Part shown: in pieces, positions 42,783 through 45,182 of the stretch
Layout: the number at the start of each line of letters is the position of its first letter
Position numbering within the stretch: the stretch's first letter is position 1
The notes under the pieces: generated by a model
What the model saw: only the letters and a program-made list of their open reading frames with translations
Told to the model about the DNA's origin: nothing
Databases searched by the model: none
Program-made: the position numbers and the translations under genes
Source of the DNA: Psammoneis japonica
Lineage: Eukaryota
Direction: 5' to 3'
DNA length: 64,000 nucleotides
NCBI GenBank assembly: GCA_008632985.1
Contig: QPGO01000104.1
Location: 1 to 64,000 of the forward strand

Positions 42783-44830
42783 TTGTTTTCTTTGGTCTCA
42801 ACTTTGATTTTTTCTTTTTCCCACATCAAGCTCCCTCCTGACAGCAATGTTGAAGGCAAGACAGCAAAGCCAGGTGTGCTTGGCAAATGGAGAGTGTGGC
42901 AAGTGGAGGAGAAAAACAGATTTCATGCACGTGGTGCACTTGAGCCCAATTTCAACACTTTGGCAATCACTAAACAACATGCCCTCTGTTCACTTGTGGG
43001 TTGGCACAAACAAGCAGAGAAAAAGGAATGAAGGGCTCTTTGGTGGCTGGAAGGAGCAAAACATGTGCCCTCATGGCTCATTTGCAGACAGAGCTCAGAG
43101 GTCAGGTTCAACAACTTGGGTGACCCCCACAAAGTTGACACAGCACTCAATGGATTTAAGGTTCATTGCAAGACTTTTGTGCCAGGAGCCATGCAGTGAG
43201 AGGAAGTTGAAAAAGGTCTCTCCAACCATTGGAAGAGCCCATTGTTGCAGTCAACAAACATGCAATGGGAGCATGAGTCAGAGTCCAAGATTTTGACATT
43301 CACTGAGATGATGCAGAGCAGAGCAGCCTTCATTTTGGGTTTGTTGACTTTCTCTGTGGCGTGTCAACTGCACCTGTCATTGGAGAGTGGAGGAGCAGCA
43401 AGTTGGAGCCATGTGTGTTGATGACAATCACTCAATCCATGACCAGCAGAAGAGTCGTGTGGTGGTTCTTGCAATCCATCAGCACCAGGTTCAATGCCAG
43501 TTTCTTTGGATTTAGAGGAACACCATGGGACATTGGGAATGGATTGCATCAAAAATTTAGAATGAAAAGGGCCACTGCAAACACCCATGATTTGAGTGAG
43601 TTGTTGGAGGTGAGAGTGTCATGCACACAGAATGTGATTTGTCTTCTGGCAATTGGCTCCTTCTTTTGGGGCATTCGGTCATGGAGCTGAGCCCTGACTG
43701 CATTGGCTGGGGCCAGCTTTGAGATGGCCACCAACCATGTTGTTTGCACTGCCGGCTGTCAGAAACCTCCTCACAACTGCCCTTTGGGGCGTTTCATGGA
43801 TGCCGAGTGCCAGACTTGCTCCTGTGAATTCTGCGCCTCACATGTCAGCAACTGGCAGGAACTGCCAGTTGACAGAGTGAGGAGTTGAGAGCAATGAAAA
43901 ATCAAAAGCAGCCTCAGCAAAGCAGCAAGAAGATTTTTCTTCATCATGGTTAAATGTCACTTGGTGTCCATGAAGCATCGCCAGTGCCAAAGAAAAATCC
44001 GCAGTCATGGCTTCTTGGAGTTCGGCTGTGGTGGCCTGCCATCCGTGGCATCACAGAGGTGCAGCAGAGCAAGACAGCAACCATCCTTTCAAACTGCTTC
44101 AACACTGCAATCATGACAACAGCTCCATGCTAAAACTGTCTCATGAGACGTGTGCTTGGATTGAACACAGATTGCTCAAAGTTGTGTCAATGCAAGTTGT
44201 TTCAGAAAGCCTGACCTCTCAATGTTTCTTCCCTTGAACATGGGTCACTCATTTCATTTTAACAGTCAGATTCTGTTTCACCCCACCAGCCAAAATCAGA
44301 TGATGATGATTCTTCAATCCACAACCCAAGTTCGGATTCATCGCCAGACCACTCGCTGTTGTCACATGGCTTGCTTTGTCATCATCCCTGAAGACAGCAC
44401 AATCCTCTTTGGTCAATGGACTCTCAGCCCATCAGTGCTGGTTTTGAGACCAGTTTCTTTGGATTTAGAGAAGTGTCATGGGAAAGTGATGTTAGATTTG
44501 AGCAAGCACATGTTGTGGAGATAGCCATCAAAAATGCCCTTGACTTGAGCAAGTTGAGGGAGGGGAGAGTGTCATGCACACAGGGCGTGACTCATCTTCT
44601 GACAATTGGTTCCCGTGGCAGTGGGTCATGGAGTGGAGCCCTGACTGCACCAGAGCCAGTTTTGAGATGGCCACCAACCATGTCATTTGCACTGCCGGCT
44701 GTCAGAAGCCTCCTTGCTGTGCCCTTTGGGGCATTGTGTGGATGCTGAGTGCCAGACTTGCTCCTGTAAATTCTGTGCCTTGCACATTGGCAACTAGCAG
44801 GAAATGCCGGTGGACAGAGTGAGGAATTGA
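42783..44830 (+). pseudogene. Eroded duplicate of the VOMI-domain gene, plus a second partial tandem copy (about 44430-44830)
   Basis: Colinear with about 30270-31950. TA and CG of the intact copy are replaced by TG/CA, with many stops. Confidence 0.85.
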
Positions 44831-45182
44831 GAGCAATCAAAAATTGAATGCAGCCTCAATAAAGCATTAAGATGTTTTTTTGTTTTGTCATGGTTCAACG
44901 TTGCTTAGTGTCTGTGAAGCATCTCTAGTGCTTAAGGAAAAATTCGCAGTGGTGGCTTCTTGGAGTTGGGCTGCAGCAGCCTGCCGTCCGGGGTAGAACA
45001 GAGGTGCAGCAGAGCAAAACAGCAACCACACTTTCAAAGGACTTCGACGTTGCAATCATGATAACAGCGCCATCCTTAACTGTCTCATAAGGCGTGCACT
45101 TGGATTAAATAGATTGCAAAAGTTATGTCAATACACGTTTGACTTGCATTACCGCATTCTCTCGAGGGCCGTTCGTTTCTTT

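Follow-up and report, generated by a model that had tools for sequence, protein, structure and literature searches.

Directional erosion of TpA and CpG dinucleotides in a bounded tract of a duplicated gene array of the diatom Psammoneis japonica

Region-specific hypermutation of TpA dinucleotides has so far been described only in a 2026 preprint on viral inserts in the genome of a chlorarachniophyte, Bigelowiella natans (Mettrop et al., 10.64898/2026.01.13.699255). In that study, 230 of the 231 mutations found in two regions of integrated viral DNA were A:T to G:C changes, all GC-biased mutations there fell on TpA, at rates about 1000-fold above background, and the process was proposed to be adenine deamination and read as genome defence. 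A full-text literature search found no diatom report of region-specific TpA hypermutation. Here we describe a locus of the diatom Psammoneis japonica, on a stretch of 64,000 nucleotides (contig QPGO01000104.1, positions 1-64,000; hereafter the window), in which the same genes are present in eroded and un-eroded form 12 kb apart: copies of a VOMI-domain gene lying within an 11-kb tract have lost nearly all of their TA and CG to TG and CA, and the reference VOMI copy and the two F-box genes next to these copies show no such directional loss. We consider it probable that two context-specific transition processes have run close to saturation in this tract, that they are aimed at a chromosomal domain, and that this domain is older than the long terminal repeat (LTR) element that it now contains.

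Three further systems invite comparison. ADAR and APOBEC enzymes edit RNA or cDNA during retrotransposition, giving strand-coordinated clusters of changes. Repeat-induced point mutation (RIP) of fungi acts on linked duplicates. Changes of C:G to T:A in aligned repeats have been described (PMC2621366). In the diatom Cyclotella cryptica, methylation is found mainly at CpG, and repeats form methylated blocks of up to 30 kb beside unmethylated regions (PMC5124317).

A preliminary description of this DNA had proposed that a segment carrying a VOMI and an F-box gene at about 30.3-33.0 kb is duplicated at 42.8-46.4 kb, and self-comparison of the window bears this out; the VOMI and F-box copies are indeed there, but VOMI is present twice in the duplicate, as VOMI-B1 (42850-44182, plus strand) and a tandem partial copy, VOMI-B2 (44421-45107, plus strand), the second of which had been overlooked. 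The un-eroded reference copy, VOMI-A (30292-31821, plus strand; PF03762, E=3e-23), aligns over 30467-31821 with B1 at 72% identity and also aligns with the whole of B2 at 78% identity. B1 is an eroded pseudogene that shows in-frame stops and indels when compared with A; in B2, where the homologue of the VOMI stop codon is at 44795, the coding part is eroded and the tail largely spared. Both F-box genes are un-eroded and on the minus strand: F-box-A at 31868-33011 and F-box-B at 45260-46362, the latter with an open reading frame (ORF) at 45506-46327 of 273 amino acids. Both match the Pfam F-box domain (E=9e-6 and 1e-4), and they are 79% identical by BLAST and 84% identical over aligned columns, with a dN/dS of 0.35, which indicates that F-box-B is under purifying selection.

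Kept, converted and reverse dinucleotides were counted on MAFFT alignments of these copies. Between VOMI-A and B1, 37 TA dinucleotides have become TG or CA, two are kept and none has changed in the reverse direction (binomial p=1.5e-11); for CG the corresponding numbers are 45, six and four (p=8e-10). The preliminary description had claimed just such a heavy directional conversion of the duplicate VOMI gene, and its example, gtgTAtt to gtgTGct, was found in the alignment. It had also recommended that the two copies be aligned, and the conversions proved unequal in the way it expected, only one copy having been struck: neither VOMI-A nor either of the F-box genes shows directional conversion. 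Indeed, between F-box-A and F-box-B, 11 TA are kept and 11 converted against five reverse changes, 44 CG are kept and 10 converted against eight, and the pooled TA and CG changes (21 versus 13) do not differ significantly (p=0.23). Changes were likewise symmetric in three pairs of seven-transmembrane (7TM) paralogues; in one of these, the un-eroded control duplicates G1 (25525-26637) and G2 (27825-28924), 31 TA are kept, with 14 and 10 changes in the two directions and no directional loss. Transitions affect 41-42% of the bases in the TA and CG dinucleotides of VOMI-A versus 11-12% of bases elsewhere, and transversions 8-12% in all base classes. Because transversion levels are also alike in the VOMI (105/1306) and F-box (82/1089) parts of the duplication, the two parts are of the same age, and the extra divergence of VOMI consists of transitions.

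Where the same site had been converted in both B1 and B2, the two copies share the product at 23 sites and differ in it at 15, so that most of the changes must have arisen independently, after the tandem duplication. Polarization of the changes rests on the three VOMI copies in the window, the LTR pair and a trio of elements resembling miniature inverted-repeat transposable elements (MITEs); a search for an outgroup VOMI sequence yielded one weak match only, at 28% identity. Along the sequence, the two products show no strand coordination (runs test, z=-0.30 and 0.51), and strand-coordinated editing was ruled out on this ground. An assembly or basecalling artefact was also ruled out, as independent contigs of a public DNA run (X1) share the TA-poor state of the window (19 differences in 2587 bases) and agree with it at >99%.

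The eroded state is not confined to the VOMI copies. When the window is divided into 1-kb windows these fall into two dinucleotide classes, and a two-state hidden Markov model (HMM) of TA versus TG/CA counts, with emission values chosen by us, called eroded tracts at 3-17523, 22911-25301, 33984-44857 and 54846-62989, about 59% of the window being eroded. Observed/expected (o/e) ratios in these tracts are 0.05-0.11 for TpA, 0.23-0.60 for CpG and 1.5-1.95 for TpG and CpA, compared with 0.44-0.88 for TpA and about 0.9-1.2 for CpG in normal DNA, and five large eroded segments (37,742 bases) hold 178 TA versus 1007 in seven normal segments (22,697 bases). The tract that contains VOMI-B (33984-44857), supported by both the HMM and the 1-kb dinucleotide table, has a TpA o/e of 0.08-0.11 and a CpG o/e of 0.45-0.47, with an un-eroded island at 37239-37603. 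Two further, short 'depleted' calls of the HMM, at 32626-32943 and 45982-46306, were rejected as erosion, being homologous TA-poor F-box coding sequence of normal CpG content.

The right edge of this tract could be placed with some precision by asking of each TA and CG in copy A whether the B region has kept or converted it, and computing a change-point likelihood. The likelihood is highest for a step between 44902 and 44906 (log-likelihood gain relative to a model without a step, 44.6; approximate 95% support interval, 44788-44926), with 114 of 124 sites converted to its left and 31 of 94 to its right; the HMM places the edge at 44857/44860. An abrupt end had been claimed at about 45.1 kb. 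It does exist, but the step is 200-300 bases further left and soft, since the bins 44800-44999 and 45000-45199 are intermediate (8/14 and 6/9 informative sites converted), and the edge is thus a shoulder of about 300 bases that reaches about 45.1 kb. Erosion therefore spans the coding part of VOMI-B2 and fades in the spacer that it shares with the convergent F-box-B gene (ORF end, 45506), the domain ending near the homologue of the B2 stop codon and some 700 bases before the stop codon of F-box-B. Inside the tract, 83-100% of informative sites are converted in each 200-base bin of 42800-43999 and 44400-44799, and 71% in 44000-44199.

Erosion had originally been pictured as spreading from transposons, in particular from the LTR element, into the VOMI copy next to it. 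This element (38906-42449) has 277-base LTRs (38906-39182 and 42173-42449), TG..CA ends and a 5-base target duplication, TGAGC. Its LTRs are 94.6% identical, and their 15 differing positions make up 11 dinucleotide sites, all of the TA/CG versus TG/CA type; four are TG-versus-CA doubles, which imply that the same ancestral site was changed on opposite strands in each LTR. The element is flanked by two parts of a 7TM pseudogene. The 5' part (38664-38905, plus strand) is colinear with 46671-46935 of the un-eroded 7TM gene G3 and ends at the insertion point (transition-tolerant local alignment score 190; maximum for shuffled sequences, 103), and the continuation (42450-42663, plus strand) is colinear with 46935-47135. 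The score of the latter, 102, is borderline by itself, but its match begins exactly where that of the left part ends. The LTR element was thus inserted into an already eroded 7TM pseudogene of the second gene unit, and about 400 bases of eroded 7TM pseudogene, rather than a direct junction, separate it from VOMI-B1. Moreover, one X1 contig covers 43455 to 42455 and passes straight into letters identical to 38883-38905, without the element and with five extra letters at the junction; its 1001-base flank differs from the window at 11 positions and is in the same eroded state at 99% identity. Nearly all the erosion must therefore predate the insertion. Survival of CpG in the LTRs was considered as a clock but dropped, since the LTR CpGs lie in resistant GCGC-type contexts.

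These results do not support the LTR element as the source, and plotting conversion by distance from 42449, as the preliminary description had advised, revealed no gradient away from it. A broader form of the idea, in which silent chromatin nucleated by transposons extends into neighbouring gene copies and brings the mutation process with it, fares better, although on balance we think it unlikely. The eroded host DNA adjoins, without a break, 4.7 kb of eroded DNA of no recognizable identity to its left (33984-38663) and contains a multi-copy LTR element, erosion stops over a few hundred bases, as would be expected of a spreading domain, and diatom repeats are methylated in blocks (PMC5124317); nucleation by older transposons to the left, at 33984-38663, is possible. 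However, the sole proven transposon beside the genes arrived after erosion, and a Pfam scan of 163 ORFs of the eroded tracts (a scan of 27, of which 19 lie in or overlap these tracts, and another of 136) found no reverse transcriptase, integrase, transposase or viral domain. The only matches were to Neprosin and TPR and, below threshold, to Endonuclease_7 and a zinc finger. The Neprosin-domain ORF (10276-11172; E=3e-40) and the ORFs with TPR_10/TPR_12 repeats (13529-14496), both in the eroded tract 816-17523, contain 0.3-0.5% tyrosine and raised histidine, cysteine and tryptophan, a composition that we regard as the protein-level trace of the process; they are eroded copies of host-type genes and not transposons.

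Erosion has affected the MITE-like copies in or at the tract less than it has the genes, which is a further point against spreading from transposons. The intact copy R1 (430-826; about 397 bases with terminal inverted repeats) and R3 (37224-37619), inside the VOMI-B tract, form TA- and CG-rich islands within eroded tracts. R2 (33742-34138), at the tract edge, differs from R1 by 14 changes of TA or CG to TG or CA and by none in reverse; the third copy, used as outgroup, agrees with R1 at 10 of these 14 sites. R2 and R3 are mutually inverted and flank 3.1 kb, and may form a composite element.

The bases next to a TA strongly affect its survival in the tracts (chi-square p=3e-25). ATAC occurs once in eroded tracts versus 160 times in normal DNA, ATAT once versus 68 times and ATAG five versus 105 times, compared with 44 versus 71 for CTAA and 34 versus 61 for TTAA, and the ratios approximate the product of per-strand terms in the order TAT > TAC > TAG > TAA. 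The polarized products follow the same context, YTAY having given TG 19 times and CA nine times, and RTAR TG once and CA eight times (Fisher p=0.005), so that the changed pair is the A of 5'-T-A-Y-3' or the T of 5'-R-T-A-3'. CpG loss is mildly context-dependent, TCGA being the most and GCGC the least depleted.

Adenosine deaminases of tRNA act in a U33-A34 context, TadA has a U-A-C substrate and ADAR prefers a 3' G. The fixed 5' T would fit the tRNA adenosine deaminases, and the 3' pyrimidine would fit TadA better than ADAR. Our current working hypothesis is that TpA is converted to TpG or CpA by a change to the A of 5'-T-A-Y-3', most likely through enzymatic adenine deamination in DNA, and that CpG would be converted to TpG or CpA by deamination of 5-methylcytosine in a methylated diatom repeat domain. 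Both processes would be aimed at the domain, probably one of methylated or silent chromatin, whatever its sequence or copy number and whether or not it contains a transposon; it predates the LTR element inside it, and erosion would be continuing. That the two scars occur in the same tracts suggests that one chromatin state recruits both processes.

The same domain-limited process might instead attack thymine, a modified T (5-hydroxymethyluracil or 5-formyluracil) at R-T-A mispairing with G to give T-to-C changes. As TpA is palindromic, the T of R-T-A fits as well as the A of T-A-Y; in dinoflagellates, 5-hydroxymethyluracil is present in the DNA with a preference for TpA and TpC, and oxidized thymines mispair with G. 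We nevertheless judge this version improbable. To our knowledge no modified thymine of this kind is known in diatoms, and the U-A context, including the U-A-C of TadA, fits the tRNA adenosine deaminases. Adenine deamination is also what the authors of the B. natans study favour (10.64898/2026.01.13.699255).

A different question is whether adenine deamination and CpG decay of the proposed kind were directed by position or by homology. The preliminary description had argued for chromatin-domain rather than RIP-like targeting, and the limits of the eroded region agree with it. B1 and B2 match one another over 43497-44421 and 44450-45346, the match extending into a short F-box 3'-end fragment, 55 bases of which, at 44367-44421, are included in the tail of the B1 unit (44183-44420). 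This tail is eroded, whereas its homologue after B2 is not: the duplicated tail holds three TA and eight CG in B1 (43950-44421) and 15 TA and 21 CG in B2 (44895-45346), the homologous part of VOMI-A holding 24 and 25. Conversion in the 5' half of B1, which has no counterpart in B2, reached 45 of 46 informative sites (bins 42800-43599). The limits of erosion thus differ from those of the B1/B2 duplication.

Homology-triggered mutation of the RIP kind, by which the B1/B2 duplication, or copies elsewhere, would have been recognized and the mutation have leaked into the flanks, accordingly seems to us very unlikely. It does draw some support from the internal tandem duplication of the eroded region and from the fact that most conversions postdate it, linked duplicates being known targets of RIP. 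RIP and the process described here are alike in making irreversible dinucleotide-specific transitions that leave a compositional scar and can damage genes adjacent to repeats. The mutation type is the opposite, however: RIP changes C to T mainly at CpA and creates TpA, which is destroyed here. RIP also needs a duplication and strikes both copies, whereas here G1 and G2, adjacent tandem duplicates that were once identical, are untouched, as are the F-box pair and the homologous copy VOMI-A, and erosion is complete in the 7TM remnant and in the unduplicated half of B1 but has spared the duplicated tail of B2. The struck DNA is moreover found in single contigs at the depth of unique regions, four X1 contigs covering 42455-45061 singly at a depth of 55-63 (unique flanks, 24-58), and no second copy of B1/B2 at at least 90% likeness was found among the X1 contigs. 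The products, finally, lack strand-coordinated clustering. The present case therefore lacks both features that define RIP.

That B1 and B2 simply lost selection and drifted under a normal mutation bias has next to no chance of being correct, for although both are pseudogenes beside an F-box gene that is under purifying selection, un-eroded intergenic DNA retains its TA (12 and 13 in the 200-base bins of 46400-46799), transversions are equal in the VOMI and F-box parts, the asymmetry of 37 versus 0 and 45 versus 4 is not that of drift, and the untranslated tail of B2 is spared; in our view the asymmetry and the TA-rich neutral DNA next door refute it.

Additional evidence bears on whether erosion continues. 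Within the tract, the X1 contigs differ from the window at no fewer than 12 sites of the TA/CG versus TG/CA type, including two TG-versus-CA doubles. A tandem duplicate in another tract (8734-9181 and 9175-9622; 441 bases, 98.4% identical) is a very recent one, and five of its six differences are of the same type. Together with the LTR pair and R2, these comparisons indicate that erosion acts in place and is probably still active.

Several observations weigh against a continuing process directed at one chromatin domain. The total number of differences between window and X1 is 19/2587 in the tract and 10/2677 outside it, and the in-tract excess is clear only if one contig with nine clustered differences is left out. 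R3, although within the tract, keeps 31 TA and 27 CG; as it is un-eroded, a pure domain model must treat it as a recent arrival. TpA loss is uniform among tracts but CpG loss varies (o/e 0.23-0.60), so the link between the two scars may be loose, with CpG loss lagging, and the TpA and CpG processes may be separate, without one shared definition of the domain. Because TpA is self-complementary, sequence cannot separate A-to-G from T-to-C change. It is possible that other copies of B1 and B2 exist at less than 90% likeness or outside run X1. Lastly, the domain as we describe it is delimited by its mutational scar alone.

In the wider locus a unit of three genes (7TM, VOMI and F-box) is repeated in tandem, and in the second unit the 7TM copy, VOMI-B1 and VOMI-B2 are dead. 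VOMI-A has a 5' ORF of 261 amino acids with VOMI repeats; downstream of this ORF frame changes (introns or frameshifts) are required, and the stop codon of the gene is at 31485. The reading frames of the two F-box copies part near the C-terminus (near 32368 and at 45506-45700), each requiring a shift to match the other, with F-box-A split into ORFs of 201 and 114 amino acids and F-box-B ending in a different tail; true frameshifts, small introns or errors in homopolymers could explain this. The un-eroded G3 gene (46713-48104, plus strand; paralogue match, 46738-47757) encodes a lineage-specific protein whose closest relative found is only 49% identical. Five differences between the window and X1 are packed into 33 bases of G3 (47007-47039) and may stem from gene conversion by a paralogue. 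A single N, at 26996, interrupts the G1-G2 spacer. Among named sequences, those closest to a complete ribosomal protein S3Ae gene (51082-51891, minus strand) come from the diatoms Thalassionema, Cyclophora, Mayamaea, Helicotheca and Eucampia, at 78-84% identity, and one further sequence reaches 91%; together with the distant relatives of G3, this points to a poorly sampled diatom.

Further observations concern the eroded tracts themselves. Of the 276 ORFs in the window of at least 90 amino acids, 192 fall in eroded tracts, where they are long and overlap in all frames, because TAA and TAG stops have been erased. The 691-amino-acid ORF of the LTR element contains about 17 units of a 42-base (14-amino-acid) tandem repeat (39745-40458). 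Neither this ORF nor the other internal ORFs of the element had a Pfam match, no reverse transcriptase or integrase being found, and the element is either non-autonomous or too eroded for recognition. In all, 4659 X1 contigs align to the window, and their summed depth over the element at 40.6-42.57 kb, which is not a copy number, is 6e3-3e5, so that it belongs to a multi-copy family. At 36001-39000 the GC skew is strongly positive (+0.23 to +0.49) and the CpA o/e as high as 2.68, which seems to stem from minus-strand reading frames rich in proline. A possible very old 7TM copy at 34758-36248 (score 150; controls, at most 120) is suggestive only and was not used. In 24 metagenome loci of other diatoms, of at least 3 kb each (187,113 bases), selected from 80 around relatives of RPS3A, no 1-kb window had a TpA o/e below 0.25, but these gene-dense short contigs are uninformative on how widespread the process is.

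How, then, does this locus compare with the described systems? As in B. natans, the change is almost exclusively TpA to TpG or CpA (here at 37 of the 39 TA sites compared between VOMI-A and B1), and it is confined to discrete regions whose neighbours mutate normally, as seen in the HMM tracts, the change point and the symmetric F-box and 7TM pairs. B. natans also has clusters of 1-kb windows poor in TpA and rich in TpG and CpA, and its target too is reported to be single-copy. The two organisms, however, belong to different supergroup lineages, and the DNA struck here consists of dead host-type genes (VOMI, 7TM, Neprosin and TPR) and an LTR element, with no viral domain found, whereas in B. 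natans it is viral. TpA is depleted to an o/e of 0.05-0.11 here versus 0.45 in the giant-virus region of B. natans. CpG loss is coupled to TpA loss here, and the present data add an extended T-A-Y motif and a mapped tract edge; the words 'CpG', 'context' and 'trinucleotide' are absent from the text of the preprint. On the other hand, the preprint reports direct mutation-accumulation rates, where the present study relies on sequence comparison.

Block-like loss of CpG to TpG and CpA, which here affects 45 of 51 informative CG sites between VOMI-A and B1, is shared with methylated diatom repeats, and diatom CpG methylation would account for this half of the scar; the TpA half, faster and deeper, is not explained by methylation. 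With the editing of retroelements by ADAR and APOBEC the locus shares deaminase-type transitions that mark mobile elements, but here non-mobile genes and resident LTRs have been changed in place, without strand coordination and with a preference for a 3' pyrimidine.

Eroded and un-eroded copies 12 kb apart constitute a natural experiment that separates homology from position and has no counterpart in the B. natans preprint, and the locus yields the direction of every change, a three-base motif and an edge defined to about 140 bases. If this edge should coincide with a step in methylation or chromatin, the locus would become a direct handle on recruitment of the mutator. There are also practical consequences. 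All 15 differences between the LTRs are due to hypermutation, and LTR divergence is therefore unusable for dating insertions in such genomes. ORF finders will report false long ORFs in tracts from which TAA and TAG stops have been erased, leading to over-prediction of genes, and homology searches will miss transposons whose tyrosine and arginine codons have been rewritten. Looking further, we put forward tentatively, as a possibility that falls short of being the likelier outcome, that diatoms, and perhaps many protists of the stramenopile-alveolate-rhizarian (SAR) clade, may possess an enzyme-driven, domain-marking form of mutational silencing, which would irreversibly turn every T-A-Y and methylated CpG into TG or CA, stop within the scale of a nucleosome by an active gene, and kill transposons and resident genes alike through the loss of tyrosine codons, and of which, as a general system linked to heterochromatin and no virus-specific defence, the hypermutation in B. 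natans would be one manifestation.

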